From assembly GCF_041886205.1 (NCBI RefSeq), contig NZ_CP169029.1: 64,000 bases of DNA, one strand, 5' to 3'. Positions within the stretch are counted from its first letter, which is position 1, and each line of letters begins with the position of its first letter. Positions 3,233 to 58,710 of this stretch are shown here, in pieces. This DNA is from Escherichia coli (GTDB lineage: Bacteria; Pseudomonadota; Gammaproteobacteria; Enterobacterales; Enterobacteriaceae). Both the position numbers and the translations under genes were made by a program. Under the pieces are notes generated by a model that worked only from the letters and a program-made list of their open reading frames with translations, had not been told where the DNA came from and searched no databases.

Positions 3233-3525
3233 GTTGTGTGACCTGTTGTTGATTACATCCGATTTTACCGCGTGGGCATGGATGGGGCAAACTCACTCAA
3301 TTTCTGGTTTAAAATGGATACCTGATCCTGAAAGTTTTCTGCCATCCACGATCCGTATACGCGATAAACCCTCTGATCATCAGAGCCCTCATTTGATACA
3401 CATCACCACGTCGGATGTTGTTACGACCGCAGACGCAACAGTAACGTTTGAATAATTTAATCTTTGTTGATGTTTTTATTCATATTCCGGGCTAGGGAAA
3501 TAATCAGGCGTAATTGTGTCACTGG

Positions 3526-3594
3526 AATAGAGGTTTCTTGTGGCGCATGTGGAAGGAGCGTCTACTTTGTCTAATAGAGATTTCTTATGACGCA
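3526..3594. repeat. imperfect 22-bp direct repeat pair in the fliE-yedK junction
   Basis: AATAGAGGTTTCTTGTGGCGCA (3526-3547) and AATAGAGATTTCTTATGACGCA (3573-3594), 19/22 identical, all three differences G/A. Confidence 0.5.
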
Positions 3595-3623
3595 GTATTA
3601 TTGATCAATAGTCTCCTGGCTTA

Positions 3624-4292
3624 TCAAACCGGTTGAATTAACTCCGCTCCCTGGTTTTTGATATTACCCACCGCGCGCGATACCGGGTGCCAGGTGAACT
3701 GGTTTGCTGGCACACAACCACTGGTAGCGATTTCTGAGGCTTCTTTACCGCTAATCTCTTGCCGCATCCATTCCCGCGCAGCTTCTGGCGACAGTACCAG
3801 TGGGCGGCGGTCATGAATATCTACCAGACCCTGGTCTGCTGCTGCAGTGACAATCAAAAATCCTTCGGCTTCGTCACCGCGCTCGAACGGTGTGCTGCCT
3901 ATCGCGGCCAGAAAAACAGGTTGTCCATCAGCACGATAGATAAAATAAGGCTGCTTTTTGTCGCCTTCTTTTTTCCACTCAAACCAGCCATCGGCAAAAC
4001 AGATTGCCCGACCATGTTGCCAGAGCGGTTTAAACATGCGACTGGTTGCGGCAGTTTCTACGCGGGCGTTAATCAGCGGCGGTTTATCCCACCATCCGGG
4101 AGCATATCCCCAGAAAACCGGATCCAGATGAAGGTGTTCATCACGTTCACTGAGCAGTAGGACTTTGGTTCCCGGCGCGACGTTGTATCTGCCAATGGGT
4201 TCGGGATCATAGGGAATATCGCGTTCAATATCTTCCGCGAGAAGCGCAAGGTAATCTTCACGCGTTTGGGATTGGGCAAAGCGTCCACACAT
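3624..4292 (-). CDS. yedK: abasic-site processing protein, SRAP (SOS response-associated peptidase) family
   Basis: 222-aa ORF starting MCGRFAQ..., the N-terminal Cys-2 signature of SRAP/YedK. Confidence 0.9.
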   Translation of the reverse strand: MCGRFAQSQTREDYLALLAEDIERDIPYDPEPIGRYNVAPGTKVLLLSERDEHLHLDPVFWGYAPGWWDKPPLINARVETAATSRMFKPLWQHGRAICFADGWFEWKKEGDKKQPYFIYRADGQPVFLAAIGSTPFERGDEAEGFLIVTAAADQGLVDIHDRRPLVLSPEAAREWMRQEISGKEASEIATSGCVPANQFTWHPVSRAVGNIKNQGAELIQPV

Positions 4293-4366
4293 AGAAACCT
4301 CCTGAGATCATACTGAAAAGAATAGGAGAGGGGGCGGGTAAAATCTATGTGTCAGAGGTAACGATG

Positions 4367-4391
4367 TTCCCGCTGTGGGCCACAGCGGGAA
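4367..4391. terminator. perfect 25-bp palindrome downstream of yedF (possible terminator or protein site)
   Basis: TTCCCGCTGTGG-G-CCACAGCGGGAA; no flanking T tract, so terminator function is uncertain. Confidence 0.35.
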
Positions 4392-4398
4392 TGAGGGA

Positions 4399-4632
4399 TT
4401 ACTTCTGAATTAAATAATGAATGGTCGGCCCGTCTTGCTGAATATCCAGCACCGTATAGCCGTGATTACGCGCATCCAGTGGAATATTATTGATCGACTG
4501 CGGACAGTCGCTCACCACCTCCAGAATTTCCCCTTTTTTTAACTGCGGCATCGCCTCAAGAGTTGCGACTGCCGGATAAGGGCAGGGTTCACCCACCATA
4601 TCAAGGCGGTAATCAGGAACGATATTTTTCAT
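4399..4632 (-). CDS. yedF: TusA-like sulfurtransferase-fold protein YedF
   Basis: 77-aa ORF with CPxP motif (GEPCPYPAV); 4-nt overlap with yedE. Confidence 0.88.
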   Translation of the reverse strand: MKNIVPDYRLDMVGEPCPYPAVATLEAMPQLKKGEILEVVSDCPQSINNIPLDARNHGYTVLDIQQDGPTIHYLIQK

Positions 4633-5834
4633 GCGATCTCCTTAGCAGTCTGCGGTGCCGCACGGCGGAAGAAGCGTTTTTCCCAGCCGATAATCAACAT
4701 CAGCGCAGCAAACAACAGCAAATATGTCACCAGCAGACCACCCATCGGGCCAAAGGTTTTCAGCAGGTTGATTTTGTCCCAGTCGGTGGCCAGCGCCGGA
4801 GCGAAATCATCCCAGTAATACGCCAGAATCGTTGAGCCGATCACGTTGCCCAGACCGACCCACCAGTAGTGCACCTGGCCTTCTACCGCGCGGTACATCC
4901 AGCCGGTTTCGCAGCCGCCTGCCAGCACGATGCCAAAACCAAACAGTAAACCACCAATTACCGCGTTTGGTCCCGCCCACATGATTTTGGGTTCAACACC
5001 TAACTGTACGTAACTGAAGATCCCGATGGCACTCACCGCCATACCAATAATGATTGCTTTCGCCATGTGGGTACGTCCGGTGATCCACATATCGCGGAAC
5101 GCCGAAGTAAAGCAGATTTGCGCACGTTCAATCAGTAAACCAAAGCCGACGCCAAACAGCATTGCCAGCCCCAGTTTGGGTTGGTTCATCGCCGTGAGCA
5201 GCGCCCAGCCCAGCATGCCGAAAAAGACCAGCATCCCGAGACGAAAACGACGCCGCGCCTGATCCGGTTTTTGCGTCAGCGGTGAGGCGGCAGAAACTTT
5301 CTGCATTTTCACGGGAATACGGAAGATGGGCAGCAGGGTAAAGCGCGCGCCAAACCATGAACCAATGGCAGTGGCGATGGCAAAGAACCAGGCATGCAGC
5401 GAGAACTGAGGAATGCCGGTAAAGAACGCCGCCAGGTTACAGCCCATTGCCAGACGCGCGCCAAAACCGGCGATAATACCGCCAATAATGGCCTGCATAA
5501 TGCGGATACGGCTGCGCGGCATGCGTAGTTTGACATTGTTGGCCCACAGCGCTGCAGCAAAGCAGCCGCCAAACATACCGAGGATCATCATCCCGTCGAT
5601 GCGGGTTAATGGCGATCCTTCCAGATGGATAATTTTAAAATAACCCCACTCTTCAGCATGGATGCCGAACAGCTGCAGGAGCTGACCGCCCCAACGGGTA
5701 AATTCACCCGTGACAGCCCAAAAGGTGCCAGTAATGCCAAAATAGTAAGTGGAGAGAATACCCGCCGCGATGACCGCAGGGATGGGTGCCCAGAATTTAA
5801 TCAACCAGGCGTGTTTGAATTGCTGCCATGACAT
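4629..5834 (-). CDS. yedE: YeeE/YedE family inner-membrane transporter (putative selenium/sulfur compound transport)
   Basis: 401-aa hydrophobic polytopic ORF; synteny with yedF. Confidence 0.9.
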   Translation of the reverse strand: MSWQQFKHAWLIKFWAPIPAVIAAGILSTYYFGITGTFWAVTGEFTRWGGQLLQLFGIHAEEWGYFKIIHLEGSPLTRIDGMMILGMFGGCFAAALWANNVKLRMPRSRIRIMQAIIGGIIAGFGARLAMGCNLAAFFTGIPQFSLHAWFFAIATAIGSWFGARFTLLPIFRIPVKMQKVSAASPLTQKPDQARRRFRLGMLVFFGMLGWALLTAMNQPKLGLAMLFGVGFGLLIERAQICFTSAFRDMWITGRTHMAKAIIIGMAVSAIGIFSYVQLGVEPKIMWAGPNAVIGGLLFGFGIVLAGGCETGWMYRAVEGQVHYWWVGLGNVIGSTILAYYWDDFAPALATDWDKINLLKTFGPMGGLLVTYLLLFAALMLIIGWEKRFFRRAAPQTAKEIA

Positions 5835-6017
5835 GAATGTAGCCTCTGAACTCAGAAGGTTTGAAACAAGAGTCGCGAATCATACATCAAGCAAATTTAT
5901 TTTCGGGGTAATAATTCACAAAAATAATAGTTAGATCAAATTTCTCTCTGAACCTGGAAAGGCTGGCGACATCAGGGCTTTAATGCCACAATCCTCTTTT
6001 CTTCTCATGCAGGACGA

Positions 6018-6434
6018 ATGATGAAAAAACTCGCAATTGCAGGCGCGCTCATGTTGCTGGCGGGCTGTGCCGAAGTCGAAAACTATAACAATGTCGTGAA
6101 AACCCCCGCGCCGGACTGGCTGGCGGGCTACTGGCAGACCAAAGGGCCGCAACGTGCGCTGGTCAGTCCGGAAGCGATAGGCAGCCTCATTGTCACTAAA
6201 GAGGGCGATACCCTCGATTGCCGTCAGTGGCAGCGGGTGATTGCCGTACCGGGTAAGTTGACATTGATGTCTGATGATCTCACTAACGTTACCGTAAAAC
6301 GTGAGCTGTACGAGGTTGAGCGTGACGGTAACACCATTGAGTACGATGGTATGACGATGGAGCGTGTGGATCGCCCGACGGCAGAGTGTGCCGCCGCGCT
6401 GGATAAAGCGCCGTTACCGACGCCACTGCCGTAA
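6018..6434 (+). CDS. yedD: lipoprotein YedD
   Basis: 138-aa ORF with lipoprotein signal (MMKKLAIAGALMLLAGC); synteny next to amyA. Confidence 0.8.
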   Translation: MMKKLAIAGALMLLAGCAEVENYNNVVKTPAPDWLAGYWQTKGPQRALVSPEAIGSLIVTKEGDTLDCRQWQRVIAVPGKLTLMSDDLTNVTVKRELYEVERDGNTIEYDGMTMERVDRPTAECAAALDKAPLPTPLP

Positions 6435-6467
6435 TGAAATCTCCCCGGCTTGCCGCCGGGGATGAAT

Positions 6468-7955
6468 TTAAATCACCTCTTCGATAACCCACACGCTGAC
6501 GCTGCCGCCGTTGCAAAAGAAGGTTGCTTCGCCGTTTTCGTCGGTCACTACGCTCTCTTGCCGGTTCCCCAGAAAATCACGCCAGGTTTTATTGCCGTAA
6601 TTCTCTCCCAGATGAATGGTTTTTTCGCCATCATCCCCGTTCGACATGACCACCACGCAGCCGGGATATTCGTCAGTGCCACTGCGGCTAAAGGCAATGC
6701 AGTTCGGATGGTCGAAAAATAACGTCTGTACACCGTGGGCGAAACGCTGACGAGCGAGAATTAACTCATCAAGCTGTTCGATTATTGGCATATCTATCGG
6801 ATAGGTTTGCCCGTCACCACCGACATCTTCGTAATGCGCACCGTAGAGGTCCGGATAGAATACCGAAGGAACGCCATTTTCCCGCAACAAAATTAAGGCA
6901 TACGCCAGCGGTTTAAACCACGGTTCGACTGGCGCTTCGAGGGCTTGCAACGGTTGGGTGTCATGGTTGGCAACGAGGGTTACGGCGTGAAAAGGATCGG
7001 CTTCCACCAGCGTCCCAGTGAAAATCTGCGTCATGTCGTAGTCGCGTCCCATGCGCGATGCTTCATGGAATTTCATCTGCAGCGGCGCATCAAACAGCAT
7101 GGTTTTGCCTTCCACCTGATCAATATACGTTTGCAGTTTATCGACTTCATGCGACCAGTATTCCGCCACAATAAACAGCGGCTTTGGCGCAACTTCTTGT
7201 ACGTGTTCGATCCACTCTTTATAAAACCACGCCGGTATATGTTTGACCGCATCAAGACGAAAACCGTCGCATTGTGTTTGTTCCATCACCCAGCGCGCCC
7301 AGTATTTAATCTCTTCCGTCACGGCATGATTGCGGAAATCGATATTCTCGCCCATCAGATAATCGAAATTACCTAACTCATCATCAACCTGATCGTTCCA
7401 GCCTTCGCCGGTGTAGTCGTTAACAATTTTAAATATGCCATCTTCATCAGGATTTTCGATATGGTCGATACCGCTAAAACATTTGAAATCCCAGATAAAC
7501 TGCGAGTATTGCCCGGCACGAGCGGGGAAGGTGTAACGCGTCCAGCCTTCGCACTCAATGATTTCTTCGTCAATTTGCGTACGGTCATCAGCATTTACAC
7601 GCTGCACGCGAATAGCTTCTTTTTCATCCGCGCCCATTTTGTGGTTGACTACCACATCCAACAGCACCGCAATGTCATTACGTTTCAGAGCGTCAATGGC
7701 GGCCAGCAGTTGTGCTTTATCGCCATATTTAGTAGGGATGCTGCCTTTCTGATCAAACTCGCCTAAATCAAATAAATCATAGGAGTCGTAGCCGACCGAA
7801 TACCCGCCCGATGCGCCTTTATAGGCGGGCGGCAACCAGACCATATTGATACCAATATCATTAAAACCGTCGGCGCGCTCGGCCAGTTCAGGCCAGAGCT
7901 TACCGCCTTCCGGGTAATACCAGTGAAAACATTGTAACAGCGTGGGATTACGCAT
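6468..7955 (-). CDS. amyA: cytoplasmic alpha-amylase
   Basis: 495-aa ORF with glycoside hydrolase family 13 motifs ([14 protein letters not shown]); synteny beside fliT. Confidence 0.93.
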
Positions 7956-8032
7956 TCTTCGACTCCATTCAAGGGGAACATTAGAAGCGTAGCCGTAATC
8001 AGATTATTCGCGAGCCATTAGCTCGTTAAGAT

Positions 8033-8398
8033 TCACGAGAAGTTATCTTGCGGAGCCAGCACAAAGCCGCCCTGATCGCCATAGGCACTTAACACCGATT
8101 TTTGCACCGATGACTGACCGACCAGTTTCGCCAGTTCATTCATCCGAATCTGTAATAACTGCTTTACCTTGCTTTCGTTATCGAGAATCAGGCGCAGCAT
8201 CGGGCGGAGCTGCTCCTGCATCGTGGTGGACGGGTCAATCTCATCAGTCAGATGTGCAATCTCCTGCACCGCATTCACATACGCCATTTCGCTGGCGATG
8301 AGTTCGTCCCATTGTTCTTCCGTTGCCAGGCGTAACATGAGCTGGCTTTTTTCGACGAGTTGTTGCCAGGCGAAATACAAATGCGGTGCGTGGTTCAT
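8033..8398 (-). CDS. fliT: flagellar export chaperone FliT
   Basis: 121-aa ORF, last gene of fliDST; 1-nt overlap with fliS. Confidence 0.92.
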
Positions 8399-8808
8399 CA
8401 GACTGGGTCCTGAATCAAAGAAGGGGAGAGTAATGACTCTTTCCAGGCATCGGCAATATTGCGCATTAATGCTTCCACTTCTTCGACTGCGGAGACATCG
8501 TTGCGTAAATTGGCTTGCAGCAAACGCCTGACCATATAGCTATAAAGAGCAATCAAGTTTTGGGTTAGTTCGTCTTTGCTCTCTTCATCAAGACTCACCC
8601 GCAGTCCGTTCTCAATGATGTTGATCGCTTTTGACAAAGAGACGCCTTTGCCTTGCTGATTGTTGTCCTGCATAAACAGGCGCGCTCTAACCAGTGCGCT
8701 TAGCACTCCATCAAATAGCATGGTGACCAGCTGCTGCTGGCTGGCGCTCATTACGGCGCTTTCGACGCCAATTTGTGCATAGGCCTGGGTGCCTTTTGCC
8801 GCGTACAT
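8398..8808 (-). CDS. fliS: flagellin-specific export chaperone FliS
   Basis: 136-aa ORF recognised as FliS. Confidence 0.93.
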
Positions 8809-8823
8809 AGTATCTCCTGAAGA

Positions 8824-10239
8824 TTATTTCGAGTTGCTATTTGAGGTGTCGAACTGCTGTGTCAGATAGCTACTGGTGGAGTTAAGCGAGTTCATTAACA
8901 CATCTAATTGGGTGAACTGGGCTTTATAGCGCGTCATTAAGGTATCGATACGCTCACTGGCTGCGTTGTACTGGTCGGTCAAATTATTCAGCGTTTTGCT
9001 GACGCCATCTTTTGCGGCCTGGATTATCCCGGTGGAAGAGAGCCAACTGGTCAGGTTGCTACTAATGCCGGTGGTTACCCCTGTACTTTTACCGTCACCT
9101 ATAAACATTTCACCGATGCCAGTGGCATCTTTTTTTAGCGCCGTTTGCAGTTTGTCGGTCGCGATTTCCAGCTTGCCGGTACTGGCATCGCTGGTAACGC
9201 CAATCTGTGCCAGCGTTTTATAGTTTGAACTGCTGTGAGTATTGGCGAGCAAGGTTTTAAGCTGAGTCTGGATGGTACGCAGTGTGGAGTCACCGAGTAA
9301 TGCGCCATTACTGGAGTCCTGACTTTCTGCTCCGGCATCGACAGCGGTGTATTTGGTTAAGCTACTGAATGTATCCTGCAATGTGTTATAGGCATCCACC
9401 CATGCTTTGACCGCATTTTCAGCTTTGGATGTGTCTTTATTGATGGTCAGTGTCTGATTACCGGTGGTGACGTCATTCAGGTTGAGTGTGATATCTTCCA
9501 GCGCGTCGCTGATAGTGTTACTGCTGTTTTCAATCTCAACGTTATTGACTGTCAGTTTGGCGTTTTGCGCGGTGACGCTTTCAATCATGCCATTGCTGCT
9601 ATCACCCGACGTTCCGTTGTAACCCATAAAACTTTCCAGGGCGCTGTCGCCGCTGACGCTAAGTTTCATAGCGTTATCGTTGCCCGTATCGTTAGCGGTG
9701 ATGGACAGACGATATTCGCCGTTTCCCACATTGATGATACTGGCGCTGACACCAGCTTTGGCGTTGTTAATGGCATCGCGAATGCCGGAAAGTGACGAGT
9801 TAGCTGCGCTGATATCAATCGTGACCGGATCTTTACCGCCGCCTTGCTGGATGGTCAGTACGCTATCGCTGGTGGCGATGGCAGCTTTACTGTCTTTTTG
9901 ACTAATTTTTGTGGTCAGCGTTTGTGCCTGCGCCAGTTGGCTAACGCTAATGGTGTATTTCCCGGCAATCGCGCTGCCCGTGGTGGTGGCGCTGAAAGCC
10001 GATGAACTGCTGGTGGTTGAAGTGGCGGTAAATAAATCGGCTTTATTCAGTGCAGTGTTGGCTGTCTGGAAACTCTCTAGTGCACTTTTCAGCGTCCCGT
10101 AGGCGCTCAGTTTCGCGGTGTAAGAGCTTTGCTGTTTTGATATCGGCGTCAGGGTAGATTTTTCTGCCGCCTCCAGACTGTCAAGGATGCTGCTTAAGTC
10201 CAGCCCCGACCCAACCCCAAGCGTTGAAATACTAGCCAT
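8824..10239 (-). CDS. fliD: flagellar filament capping protein FliD
   Basis: 471-aa ORF recognised as FliD; sigma28 promoter upstream. Confidence 0.93.
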   Translation of the reverse strand: MASISTLGVGSGLDLSSILDSLEAAEKSTLTPISKQQSSYTAKLSAYGTLKSALESFQTANTALNKADLFTATSTTSSSSAFSATTTGSAIAGKYTISVSQLAQAQTLTTKISQKDSKAAIATSDSVLTIQQGGGKDPVTIDISAANSSLSGIRDAINNAKAGVSASIINVGNGEYRLSITANDTGNDNAMKLSVSGDSALESFMGYNGTSGDSSNGMIESVTAQNAKLTVNNVEIENSSNTISDALEDITLNLNDVTTGNQTLTINKDTSKAENAVKAWVDAYNTLQDTFSSLTKYTAVDAGAESQDSSNGALLGDSTLRTIQTQLKTLLANTHSSSNYKTLAQIGVTSDASTGKLEIATDKLQTALKKDATGIGEMFIGDGKSTGVTTGISSNLTSWLSSTGIIQAAKDGVSKTLNNLTDQYNAASERIDTLMTRYKAQFTQLDVLMNSLNSTSSYLTQQFDTSNSNSK

Positions 10240-10281
10240 ATAAATTCCTTAATCATGCGACGTATAGAACGAATACCGGGG

Positions 10282-10308
10282 TTATCGGCGTAAGCGGGGC
10301 AAAGTTTA
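10282..10308 (-). promoter_or_regulatory. sigma28 promoter of fliDST
   Basis: Minus strand reads TAAACTTT (10308-10301), 11-bp spacer, GCCGATAA (10289-10282); about 45 bp upstream of the fliD start. Confidence 0.7.
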
Positions 10309-10381
10309 CGATTTATTTTTTGGCTTAATGACACGAACAGCAACGAGGAAGGGGAGTATTTCGACCGCTAGAAAAAAATTC

Positions 10382-10408
10382 TAAAGGTTGTGAGTGACCA
10401 GACGATAA
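10382..10408 (+). promoter_or_regulatory. sigma28 promoter of fliC
   Basis: TAAAGGTT (10382-10389), 11-bp spacer, GACGATAA (10401-10408); about 75 bp upstream of the fliC ATG. Confidence 0.75.
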
Positions 10409-10484
10409 CAGGGTTGACGGCGACGAAGCCGAAGGGTGGAAGCCCAATACTTAAACCGTAGACTTGAAAACAGGAAAATGAATC

Positions 10485-11807
10485 ATGGCACAAGTCATTA
10501 ATACCAACAGCCTCTCGCTGATCACTCAGAACAACATCAACAAAAACCAGTCTGCGCTGTCGACTTCTATCGAGCGCCTCTCTTCTGGTCTGCGCATTAA
10601 CAGCGCTAAAGATGACGCTGCGGGCCAGGCGATTGCTAACCGCTTCACTTCTAACATCAAAGGTCTGACTCAGGCCGCACGTAACGCCAACGACGGTATC
10701 TCTCTGGCGCAGACCACTGAAGGCGCACTGTCTGAAATCAACAACAACTTGCAGCGTGTTCGTGAACTGACCGTTCAGGCCACTACCGGTACTAACTCTG
10801 ATTCTGACCTGTCTTCAATCCAGGACGAAATCAAATCCCGTCTCGATGAAATTGACCGCGTATCCGGTCAGACTCAGTTCAACGGCGTGAACGTACTGGC
10901 AAAAGATAACACCATGAAGATTCAGGTTGGTGCGAACGATGGTCAGACTATATCCATCGACCTGCAAAAAATCGACTCTTCTACTCTTGGTTTGAACGGT
11001 TTCTCCGTTTCTAAAAATGCTCTCGAAACTAGCGAAGCGATCACTCAGTTGCCGAACGGTGAGAATGCCCCAATCGCTGTGAAGATGGATGCGTCTGTTC
11101 TGACCGATCTTAACATTACTGATGCTTCTGCTGTTTCGCTGCACAACGTAACTAAAGGTGGTGTCGCAACGTCTACTTATGTTGTTCAGTATGGCGATAA
11201 GAGCTATGCAGCATCTGTTGATGCGGGAGGTACAGTAAAACTGAATAAAGCCGACGTAACATATAACGACGCAGCAAATGGTGTTAAGAATGCCACCCAG
11301 ATTGGTAGTCTGGTTCAGGTTGGTGCTGATGCAAACAATGATGCAGTTGGTTTTGTTACCGTGCAGGGGAAAAACTATGTTGCTAATGACTCATTAGTCA
11401 ATGCTAATGGCGCTGCTGGCGCTGAAGCAACTAGAGTTACAATTGATGGTGATGGTACTAACCAGGCTAAAATTGAACTTAGCCAAAATGGTGATACTGC
11501 TGCAACATCAGAGTTCGCTGGTGCTTCAACCAACGATCCACTGACTCTGCTGGACAAAGCTATCGCATCTGTTGATAAATTCCGTTCTTCTTTGGGGGCG
11601 GTACAGAACCGTCTGAGCTCCGCTGTAACCAACCTGAACAACACCACCACCAACCTGTCTGAAGCGCAGTCCCGTATTCAGGACGCCGACTATGCGACCG
11701 AAGTGTCCAACATGTCGAAAGCGCAGATTATCCAGCAGGCAGGTAACTCCGTGCTGTCCAAAGCTAACCAGGTACCGCAGCAGGTTCTGTCTCTGCTGCA
11801 GGGTTAA
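10485..11807 (+). CDS. fliC: flagellin FliC (non-K-12 allele, 440 aa)
   Basis: Conserved flagellin N terminus (MAQVINTNSLSLITQNNINKNQSALS...) and C terminus (...QVPQQVLSLLQG) with a divergent central domain. Confidence 0.95.
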   Translation: MAQVINTNSLSLITQNNINKNQSALSTSIERLSSGLRINSAKDDAAGQAIANRFTSNIKGLTQAARNANDGISLAQTTEGALSEINNNLQRVRELTVQATTGTNSDSDLSSIQDEIKSRLDEIDRVSGQTQFNGVNVLAKDNTMKIQVGANDGQTISIDLQKIDSSTLGLNGFSVSKNALETSEAITQLPNGENAPIAVKMDASVLTDLNITDASAVSLHNVTKGGVATSTYVVQYGDKSYAASVDAGGTVKLNKADVTYNDAANGVKNATQIGSLVQVGADANNDAVGFVTVQGKNYVANDSLVNANGAAGAEATRVTIDGDGTNQAKIELSQNGDTAATSEFAGASTNDPLTLLDKAIASVDKFRSSLGAVQNRLSSAVTNLNNTTTNLSEAQSRIQDADYATEVSNMSKAQIIQQAGNSVLSKANQVPQQVLSLLQG

Positions 11808-21798: not shown

Positions 21799-21874
<76 letters not shown>

Positions 21875-21927
21875 GTTTAAAAGACATCGGCGTAAGCGGA
21901 TGTCTGGCTGAAAGGCCTGAAGAATTT

Positions 21928-22001
21928 GGCGCGTTAACAAAGCGGTTATGTAGCGGATTGCAAATCCGTCTAGTCCGGTTCGACTCCGGAACGCGCCTCC
22001 A
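21928..22001 (+). tRNA. cysT: tRNA-Cys (GCA)
   Basis: 74-nt sequence GGCGCGTTAACAAAGCGGTTATGTAGCGGATTGCAAATCCG...CGCGCCTCCA. Confidence 0.92.
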
Positions 22002-22013
22002 CTTTCTTCCCGA

Positions 22014-22100
22014 GCCCGGATGGTGGAATCGGTAGACACAAGGGATTTAAAATCCCTCGGCGTTCGCGCTGTGCGGGTTCAAGTCCCGCTCCGGGTACCA
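22014..22100 (+). tRNA. leuZ: tRNA-Leu (long variable arm)
   Basis: 87-nt sequence GCCCGGATGGTGGAATCGGTAGACACAAGGGATTTAAAATCCC...CCGGGTACCA. Confidence 0.92.
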
Positions 22101-30370: not shown

Positions 30371-33726
<3,356 letters not shown>

Positions 33727-33732
33727 GAGCGG

Positions 33733-34161
33733 TTAATCTCCCGTAAGTGGAACTAACAGCACATCGACCTCACTTGAGGCAATAACTCTTTTCGCCGAGC
33801 AGGATGCTCGCGAAAAGAAACTGTGATTGTGATTACCGCAAATCACCAAATCGAAATGATGCTTGTGACATACTTCCAGAATATGTTCGCTTAACTCACC
33901 GTAGGCAATAAACGTCTTGTCAACGGGATACCCCGCATCCTGAATTAACTTATCAAGAAAGCTTTGCGTTTCTTCCTGCATCACGCTGCGTAAATCTTCA
34001 AGCATCGGCGCAGCTAATTGATTGTACATTTCCGGGTCGGAAGCGAGAGTAATTAAACTGATGTGTCCCTTTACTGGCCTGGCGATAGATACCGCTTTTG
34101 CCAGCAGTTGCTGACTTTCCGGTGTAACCGCAACAGCGACAAGAATATTGCTATAGCTCAT
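33733..34161 (-). CDS. uspC: universal stress protein UspC
   Basis: 142-aa ORF (MSYSNILVAVAVTPESQQLL...), Usp fold; synteny upstream of flhDC. Confidence 0.88.
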   Translation of the reverse strand: MSYSNILVAVAVTPESQQLLAKAVSIARPVKGHISLITLASDPEMYNQLAAPMLEDLRSVMQEETQSFLDKLIQDAGYPVDKTFIAYGELSEHILEVCHKHHFDLVICGNHNHSFFSRASCSAKRVIASSEVDVLLVPLTGD

Positions 34162-34940
34162 AACCTGTTCCTTATTCTGTGAACTTCAGGTGACATTAAA
34201 GCTTTACTCCTAATGGAGAAACGACGCAATCCCAACTCGGTCAAACAGGTAAATATTAGTCTGATTATTAGTAAAGACAATTAATCAATCACTCCCGGTG
34301 ATCATATAATTTCAAATGTAATTATAAGAAAATAGTGTACTGATTCTCCGCATTAAACAAGTGGTTAATATATGTAAAACATTTCATTAATATTAAGTTG
34401 ATTGTTGCCTTTCTTTGTATTTAATTAGTTTGTTGTGCGGTAAGTGTCTGTTTAAAAATAGCTTATCTGGTATTGCATGAAAGTGATTATTTATAGCAGA
34501 TGATTATTTACGGTGAGTTATTTTGACTGTGCGCAACATCCCATTTCGATTATTCCTGTTTCATTTTTGCTTGCTAGCGTAGCGAAAAACTTTTTAACAG
34601 ATTGAAATACACCCAAAACAAAAGTATGACTTATACATTTATGTTAAGTAATTGAGTGTTTTGTGTGATCTGCATCACACATTATTGAAAATCGCAGCCC
34701 CCCTCCGTTGTATGTGCGTGTAGTGACGAGTACAGTTGCGTCGATTTAGGAAAAATCTTAGATAAGTGTAAAGAACCATTTCTATTTGTAAGGACATATT
34801 AAACCAAAAAGGTGGTTCTGCTTATTGCAGCTTATCGCAACTATTCTAATGCTAATTATTTTTTACCGGGGCTTCCCGGCGACATCACGGGGTGCGGTGA
34901 AACCGCATAAAAATAAAGTTGGTTATTCTGGGTGGGAATA
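34162..34940 (+). promoter_or_regulatory. flhDC upstream regulatory region and 5' leader (class 1 flagellar promoter)
   Basis: 779-bp AT-rich non-coding region before flhD; no IS element present; individual operator sites not resolved here. Confidence 0.6.
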
Positions 34941-35291
34941 ATGCATACCTCCGAGTTGCTGAAACACATTTATGACATCAACTTGTCATATTTACTACTT
35001 GCACAGCGTTTGATTGTTCAGGACAAAGCGTCCGCTATGTTTCGTCTCGGCATAAATGAAGAAATGGCGACAACGTTAGCGGCACTGACTCTTCCGCAAA
35101 TGGTTAAGCTGGCAGAAACCAATCAACTGGTTTGTCACTTCCGTTTTGACAGCCACCAGACGATTACTCAGTTGACGCAAGATTCCCGCGTTGACGATCT
35201 CCAGCAAATTCATACCGGCATCATGCTCTCAACACGCTTGCTGAATGATGTTAATCAGCCTGAAGAAGCGCTGCGCAAGAAAAGGGCCTGA
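34941..35291 (+). CDS. flhD: flagellar master regulator subunit FlhD
   Basis: Start at ATG 34941 ([24 protein letters not shown]...) giving 116 aa; the ORF-track start 9 nt upstream is a GTG extension. Confidence 0.93.
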
Positions 35292-35293
35292 TC

Positions 35294-35872
35294 ATGAGTG
35301 AAAAAAGCATTGTTCAGGAAGCGCGGGATATTCAGCTGGCAATGGAATTGATCACCCTGGGCGCTCGTTTGCAGATGCTGGAAAGCGAAACACAGTTAAG
35401 TCGCGGACGCCTGATAAAACTTTATAAAGAACTGCGCGGAAGCCCACCGCCGAAAGGCATGCTGCCATTCTCAACCGACTGGTTTATGACCTGGGAACAA
35501 AACGTTCATGCTTCGATGTTCTGTAATGCATGGCAGTTTTTACTGAAAACCGGTTTGTGTAATGGCGTCGATGCGGTGATCAAAGCCTACCGTTTATACC
35601 TTGAACAGTGCCCACAAGCAGAAGAAGGACCACTGCTGGCATTAACCCGTGCCTGGACATTGGTGCGGTTTGTTGAAAGTGGATTACTGCAACTTTCCAG
35701 CTGCAACTGCTGCGGCGGCAATTTTATTACCCACGCTCACCAGCCTGTTGGCAGCTTTGCCTGCAGCTTATGTCAACCGCCATCCCGGGCAGTAAAAAGA
35801 CGTAAACTTTCCCAGAATCCTGCCGATATTATCCCACAACTGCTGGATGAACAGAGAGTACAGGCTGTTTAA
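35294..35872 (+). CDS. flhC: flagellar master regulator subunit FlhC
   Basis: 192-aa ORF with C-terminal zinc-binding cysteine cluster. Confidence 0.95.
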
Positions 35873-35898
35873 CTGATACGGTGAGGCGCAACATTCCA

Positions 35899-35930
35899 GC
35901 AGCGGTAACGACGTACCGCTGCTTTTTTTT
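35899..35930 (+). terminator. rho-independent terminator after flhC
   Basis: GCAGCGGTA/TACCGCTGC 9-bp stem followed by T8. Confidence 0.7.
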
Positions 35931-53863: not shown

Positions 53864-54619
<756 letters not shown>

Positions 54620-55005
54620 TTTTTACCGTTGCATCATGTCGCCCAATATGATGCTTGCTCGTACCAGGCCCCTGCAATTTCAACAGGGGCCTTTTTTTAT
54701 TTCTGAATAGTATAAAAAACGAACGATTGCCGTGATCTGTTGAGCGGGTGACAGTGCGCATAGCGTTGTGCTAAAAATATTTTATATATTCACATTAATT
54801 ATGGGATTTAAATTGCTAAAACTGATAAATATATATTCTAAATAGCAACTGGGTTATTCCTTAGAAATTAAGGATTACATTGTAATAAATCATATTCTTT
54901 TTCGATTATTTCAGGCAGTGTTGTGCCGAATTATGCAAGCGGTTAATTCGTTGTATATTTAATTATACAATGATTTCGGTGTTCTGGAATTAAATATAGG
55001 AATCT

Positions 55006-58611: not shown

Positions 58612-58710
58612 GCCTGATGCGCTATGCTTATCAGGCCTACATAGTCCCTGCAATATATTGAATTAGCAAGGTTTTGTAGGCCGGATAAGGCGTTCACGCC
58701 GCATCCGGCA
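58612..58710. repeat. BIME (pair of inverted REP units) between torZ and cmoB
   Basis: GCCTGATGCGCTATGCTTATCAGGCCTACA ... TGTAGGCCGGATAAGGCGTTCACGCCGCATCCGGCA; near-identical to the element at 11851-11950. Confidence 0.8.

Follow-up and report, generated by a model that had tools for sequence, protein, structure and literature searches.

An uninterrupted, IS-free uspC–flhD intergenic region upstream of flhDC in an Escherichia coli strain close to K-12

INTRODUCTION

Insertion of a mobile element upstream of the flagellar master operon flhDC is a known cause of activation of this operon in Escherichia coli (PMC5100188, PMC5493358, PMC11237407, PMC8652233). Activating insertions have been documented from −96 out to −476 (PMC5100188; also PMC5493358 and PMC11237407; positions are counted from the transcription start site, TSS). 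The IS5 targets described there include TTAA, published as −99 to −96 (PMC5100188); CTAG, given as −166 in PMC5100188 and also found in the legend to Fig. 4 of PMC5493358; and TTAG, which corresponds to an IS5 lying 516 bp upstream of the start codon in PMC11237407 and to −315 in PMC5100188. It was in K-12 backgrounds that strains with an empty region were shown to be poorly motile (PMC11237407, PMC8652233, PMC5493358), and mixed stock cultures containing an IS-bearing minority have been documented (PMC11237407).

In K-12, the ∼500 bp of AT-rich DNA upstream of the promoter would bind repressors and nucleoid proteins, and an IS inserted there would relieve the repression. From work on the same strain, the promoter itself would be a weak sigma-70 class-I flagellar promoter activated by cAMP-CRP at −71.5, the established position of the CRP site in flhDC (reported by Soutourina et al. 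1999). The 198-nt leader of the transcript, to judge by K-12, would be the target of CsrA, of the small RNAs McaS, ArcZ, OmrA/B and OxyS, and of the antisense RNA AsflhD (bioRxiv 10.1101/2021.05.11.443715). The corresponding locus of another E. coli strain is compared here with these K-12 systems and with the complete genomes of the species.

RESULTS

The interval is the complete uspC–flhD intergenic region

The sequence analysed (hereafter, the window) is a stretch of 64,000 nucleotides from contig NZ_CP169029.1, along which the gene order is fliG, fliC, sdiA, uvrY, araFGH, otsBA, uspC, flhDC, motAB, che/tar/tap, flhBAE, argS and torYZ. The list of open reading frames, reading of the sequence and synteny agreed in making positions 34162–34940 the entire 779-bp uspC–flhD intergenic region, with exact boundaries: uspC, on the minus strand and divergent from flhD, has a start codon that ends at 34161, and the ATG of flhD is at 34941 (Table 1). 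The interval therefore occupies the place of the native flhDC class-I promoter, between the divergent uspC and flhD and upstream of flhDC-motAB-cheAW. Its GC content is 34.8%, as against 50.5% for the 64-kb window, with a trough of 26.5–33.5% between 34200 and 34700. A preliminary description of this DNA had taken the interval for the AT-rich, 779-bp upstream regulatory region of flhDC, a reading borne out by synteny, boundaries and composition. Almost certainly, the interval represents the native DNA between uspC and flhD, uninterrupted, in an E. coli strain that is close to K-12 at this locus.

Elsewhere in the window, the K-12 segment with yedL, the yedN pseudogene and the intG remnant (∼1.9 kb, MG1655 positions 2010548–2012440) was absent at ∼3492–3565, save for a 67-bp match. 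Positions 3565–11528 (yedK–amyA–fliTSD) were 91% identical to MG1655, as against about 98.8% elsewhere, and the centre of fliC (10964–11528) did not align to that genome; this divergence points to another flagellin (H) type, and the segment has probably been recombined. The RNA genes recognised by Rfam in the window are included in Table 1.

Table 1. Features of the flhDC locus and RNA genes elsewhere in the window (positions are those of the window)
Feature	Positions	Relative to TSS	Strand	State and basis
uspC CDS (universal stress protein C)	33733–34161		−	142-aa ORF; uspC is the annotation at the collinear position of strain 2452, wlxctx60 and MG1655
Complete uninterrupted uspC–flhD intergenic region, 779 bp	34162–34940			Gapless alignment to IS-free alleles
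Zone of reported flhDC-activating IS insertions	34267–34647	−476 to −96		Holds the AT-rich trough; positions of PMC5100188 mapped with TSS = 34743
TTAG, documented IS5 target	34425–34428	−318 to −315		Single copy, unoccupied; YTAR site list
IS1 of EC19 (pig faeces), window equivalent	34526–34537	−217 to −206		
CTAG, documented IS5 target	34574–34577	−169 to −166		Present once, unoccupied; YTAR site list
IS1 of NCTC9008, window equivalent	34598–34606	−145 to −137		
IS1 of AF56 (human blood culture), window equivalent	34618–34626	−125 to −117		
CATTTATG, duplicated around IS1H in MG1655	34636–34643	−107 to −100		Single copy here; the two MG1655 pieces, separated by a 768-bp insert, overlap at this sequence in BLAST
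TTAA, classic IS5 target, occupied in W3110	34644–34647	−99 to −96		Single copy, empty here; W3110 alignment
cAMP-CRP site	34661–34682	Centre −71.5		Core 34664–34679 = TGTGATCTGCATCACA, perfect TGTGA-N6-TCACA; read from sequence
Putative flhD sigma-70 promoter	34708–34736		+	−35 TTGTAT 34708–34713, 17-bp spacer, −10 TACAGT 34731–34736; placed from TSS spacing; identical to K-12
flhDC 5′ leader, 198 nt, TSS 34743	34743–34940		+	End of the MG1655 AsflhD annotation and literature IS5 numbering
AsflhD antisense RNA	34743–34962		−	Mapped from MG1655 annotation b4839
Predicted leader hairpin, second GGA in small inner loop	34761–34836	+19 to +94	+	Minimum-free-energy fold and RNAalifold consensus of 8 haplotypes
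Leader SNP	34775	+33	+	A here, C in K-12; C·U mismatch becomes an A-U pair with U74
flhD CDS	34941–35291		+	Nucleotide-identical to MG1655
flhC CDS	35294–35872		+	Nucleotide-identical to MG1655
glyW-cysT-leuZ tRNA cluster	21799–22097		+	Rfam gathering-level match, position expected from K-12
C0465	40322–40399		−	Rfam gathering-level match, position expected from K-12
MicL sRNA	54391–54698		+	Rfam gathering-level match, position expected from K-12
ES036 (CssrF)	58633–58675		−	Rfam gathering-level match, position expected from K-12

Comparison with K-12 strains and with the closest genome

Alignment to MG1655 and W3110 showed the differences in the intergenic region to be IS1H at 34636–34643, IS5 at 34644–34647 and a few SNPs. 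The genome of MG1655 (NC_000913.3) carries an annotated IS1H (insA5/insB5) between flhD and uspC; its flanks are 99.7–99.8% identical to the window, which lacks both the 768-bp IS1 and the second copy of CATTTATG. In W3110 an IS5 transposase gene lies between the same two genes; the element measures 1195 bp and comes with a 4-bp duplication at TTAA. The same target is IS5-occupied in strains of the W3110, RP437 and MC1000 type, and is empty here. The statement in the preliminary description that both reference strains bear an IS at this place, in a hotspot for such insertions in laboratory strains, was thus accurate, and agrees with the literature (PMC5100188, PMC5493358, PMC11237407). Since TTAA was mapped here to −99 to −96, in exact agreement with PMC5100188, the coordinate system is cross-validated.

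When IS1H and its duplication were removed from MG1655, four substitutions remained in the 779 bp (34278, 34391, 34679 and 34775). These are, with the base of the window given before that of K-12, −465 C/T, −352 T/C, −64 A/G and +33 A/C, the last two falling within functional elements. Compared with IS-free K-12 (BW25113 and the 'non-motile' MG1655 stocks), the window has the same synteny, the same length of 779 bp, the same sequence at the putative −35 and −10 and at the TSS as placed from K-12, and the same flhDC coding sequences; the leader differs by one base. The closest complete genome was that of wlxctx60 (NZ_AP045833.1; faeces of an Asiatic black bear, Japan), with 11 SNPs in 48 kb. 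It too is IS-free and shares the +33 A on a K-12-like leader; the one SNP between the two intergenic regions is at 34391 (T here, C in wlxctx60).

The region contains no insertion sequence

Gapless alignments over the full 779 bp were obtained with thousands of genomes, at identities of up to 99.9%; this base-for-base collinearity with IS-free alleles, at 99.9% identity, was seen for both strain 2452 and wlxctx60. In a panel of ten comparison strains (MG1655 with IS1 removed in silico, BL21, an O7:K1 meningitis isolate, and cattle, turkey, bandicoot and human isolates), the intergenic length was 779 bp in nine and 780 bp in one, at identities of 94.7–99.9%. When the complete IS1H and IS5 elements excised from MG1655 and W3110 were compared with the entire 64-kb window by BLAST, no match exceeded 19 bp, and those seen are attributable to chance. 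A search for the terminal inverted repeats of IS2, IS3, IS4, IS10, IS30, IS150 and IS186 found no match, but it used unverified query sequences, and the absence of an IS is argued from collinearity.

The repeat search of the interval returned short scattered repeats, with no pair bracketing an insert. The best direct repeat was TGATTATTTA, with copies at 34484 and 34501 that lie 7 bp apart; it is native sequence in most panel strains. In strain 181.1 the first copy differs by two bases. The interval holds just two open reading frames, each of 40 aa and on the minus strand. No IS lies between about −476 and −96, as it would in an IS-activated flhDC allele, and no target-site duplication (4 bp for IS5, 8–9 bp for IS1) was found, each known target occurring once. 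The preliminary description had called the region intact, IS-free and devoid of transposase genes, and had named IS terminal inverted repeats or a target-site duplication within the interval as what would overturn this; neither was found, and gapless collinearity, the lack of IS1 or IS5 homology and the two 40-aa frames sustain the claim. There is hardly any chance that a cryptic IS remnant or excision scar, for example a fragment of an IS end or a residual target duplication, was overlooked by eye. The short chance repeats lend such a scar no support, and it would have to be reconciled with the match to thousands of IS-free alleles without an indel, with a length conserved among divergent strains (779 bp, in one case 780), with the lack of IS1 and IS5 homology, and with the presence of TTAG, CTAG, TTAA and CATTTATG in one copy each.

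Interruption of the region is rare across E. coli

To count interruptions, a 496-bp query spanning −493 to +2 was used, short enough for even IS1 to split the match into two places. This stretch was contiguous in 5282 of 5426 complete genomes and split in 171. Junction-specific queries detected the MG1655-type IS1 junction in 83 genomes and the W3110-type IS5 junction in 77; these 54-mers also seeded on IS ends genome-wide, and only counts at ≥80% coverage were used. Of the 171 interrupted genomes, roughly 160 have one of these two classic K-12 laboratory junctions, the strain identity having been checked for some of those ∼160, and about a dozen other interrupted genomes remain beyond them. 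The IS-free state is the species norm, found in about 97% of complete genomes.

Three of this remaining dozen are non-K-12 isolates (EC19, AF56 and NCTC9008), whose intergenic region is 99.7% identical to that of the window and which carry an IS1, each at a different position (Table 1). Their insertions are independent events in the zone known from laboratory selections, and indicate that the hotspot is also used outside K-12, though rarely. Among the 5426 complete genomes, at least 3972 contained an IS1 end and 1482 an IS5 end.

The CRP site has the species-typical sequence

With the TSS at 34743, the centre of the CRP core, at 34671.5, falls at −71.5. The last base of this core (34679, −64) is A in the window and G in K-12, in which the half-site reads TCACG. 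Alleles at this position were counted with 55-mers centred on the SNP, which forced megablast to seed across it: A was present in 4930 of the 5426 complete genomes and G in 418 (7.7%), and most of the G genomes among those listed were K-12 laboratory derivatives. To judge from these counts, the window has the species-typical CRP site, and K-12 is the outlier at −64. An outgroup for the polarity of the change was sought with two exact-pattern scans of genome contigs for the CRP site, which returned zero matches and then a single chance match in a Pedosphaera MAG, with no Escherichia record in either scan. Allele frequency is the only ground on which G would be the derived state in K-12. A B2-type base at −80 accounts for the failure of the first pattern to find Escherichia; the second recovered none either, although it fits every B2 strain of the panel.

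The sequence from −63 to +32, counted from a TSS whose position is itself transferred from K-12 annotation and the literature, is nucleotide-identical to MG1655, as is that from +34 to the end of flhC (and likewise 34776–35900), so all K-12 elements in these stretches are retained. A sigma-70 consensus scan returned one minus-strand site, fewer than in shuffled sequences, and did not pick up flhDp; the flhD promoter is a weak −35/−10 match, consistent with activator dependence, beyond which the scan is of no diagnostic value. The putative −10 element (34731–34736) varies among strains: it reads TACAGT in the window and K-12, TAAAGT in strain 181.1, and TACAAT, closer to consensus, in the bandicoot isolate A33.

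A base change in the leader is predicted to close a hairpin mismatch

The leader is long and has GGA motifs at 34749–34751 (+7 to +9) and 34792–34794 (+50 to +52), both 5′-proximal, which are putative CsrA sites. AsflhD, as mapped from K-12, has its promoter inside the early flhD codons; it starts 22 nt inside flhD and overlaps the leader fully. A permissive-threshold Rfam scan of 33500–35500 gave only a chance match to RNAIII (E = 0.37), which indicates that the leader contains no curated RNA family.

The one base by which this leader differs from that of K-12 lies in the predicted hairpin. According to RNAfold, the A allele at +33 makes the +19 to +94 hairpin the minimum-energy fold, at −57.9 kcal/mol versus −54.2 kcal/mol for the C allele, and the surroundings of the ribosome-binding site are the same for both alleles. 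The A is present in 352 of the 5426 genomes, nearly all of them with a more divergent leader haplotype; on the K-12-like leader it was found only in wlxctx60 besides the window. Six of the eight leader haplotypes have a mismatch at 33/74, and covariation over the nine-pair hairpin core (+30 to +38 with +69 to +77) is weak: a score as high as that observed was reached in 29 of 500 shuffles. The idea of conserved covariation at +33/+74 was dropped, given those mismatches and the unimpressive shuffle control. The predicted closing of the hairpin mismatch by +33 A is a hint, not a finding.

DISCUSSION

Both the control region of flhDC and the IS1/IS5 hotspot within it are textbook knowledge, and nearly every E. 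coli genome has that hotspot empty; that the region is IS-free here is correct yet ordinary, and already known. The counts calibrate the observation: some 3% of the 5426 complete genomes are interrupted, nearly all of them with the two classic laboratory junctions. In the lineage of the sequenced strain no mobile element would ever have become fixed in the region, the absence of one being normal for the species. A minority subpopulation bearing an IS is possible in the culture, as a consensus assembly cannot exclude one.

The preliminary description went further, and predicted from the IS-free state that flhDC is tightly repressed. On this reading the strain would be poorly motile, like IS-free K-12 (BW25113, IS-less MG1655 and NCM3722), which gains motility upon IS insertion (PMC11237407; PMC5493358; PMC8652233), and the near identity of the intergenic region and of the flhDC coding sequences to those of K-12 speaks for it. 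The relationship has, however, been shown in K-12 only; ∼97% of genomes are IS-free, and motile natural isolates are documented in the ECOR collection, where the activity of PflhD showed a weak correlation with spreading or none (PMC5289928). The half-site here is, moreover, the consensus TCACA instead of the TCACG of K-12, a strain in which substitution of single bases in the CRP region can reportedly increase the expression of flhDC (Fahrner and Berg 2015). The trans-acting background (lrhA, rcs, ompR, hns and clpX) is encoded outside the window, and genes beyond the window, for instance lrhA, clpX and those of the FlgM checkpoint, influence motility too. The prediction is therefore not supported as it was stated, and tight repression with poor motility seems somewhat more doubtful than probable; it is an extrapolation from K-12 that goes beyond what a sequence can show of expression level and motility. 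The companion prediction, that the region has the potential to gain an IS, holds in part: the targets are intact and IS1 has entered near-identical natural alleles independently, but the outcome depends on IS copies elsewhere in the genome, as there are none in the window. A future insertion here is plausible.

A different possibility is that −64 A and +33 A together make a functionally distinct promoter allele, whose expression would be unlike that of the K-12 reference. The first restores a perfect CRP core and the second closes the sole mismatch in a hairpin predicted for all eight haplotypes, with a shift in folding energy of −3.7 kcal/mol. Yet −64 A is simply the majority allele (4930 of 5426 genomes), pairing of 33 with 74 fails in six of the eight haplotypes and so evidently is under no strong constraint, and the covariation is weak, its score being reached by 29 of 500 shuffles. 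A distinct allele is thus unlikely. Also quite improbable is that the atypical promoter is that of the K-12 reference: its TCACG, a minority half-site present mainly in laboratory derivatives, contrasts with the species-typical site found here, to which is added a +33 A that would close a mismatch in a predicted leader hairpin exposing a GGA motif, presumably one for CsrA. If these two bases were to raise transcription or mRNA stability, IS-dependent motility would in part be a peculiarity of K-12, and not a general property of E. coli.

The preferred reading is that of a native, uninterrupted flhDC regulatory region in the state usual for the species. The minority status of the K-12 base at −64 is a caution against carrying K-12 motility phenotypes over to other strains.
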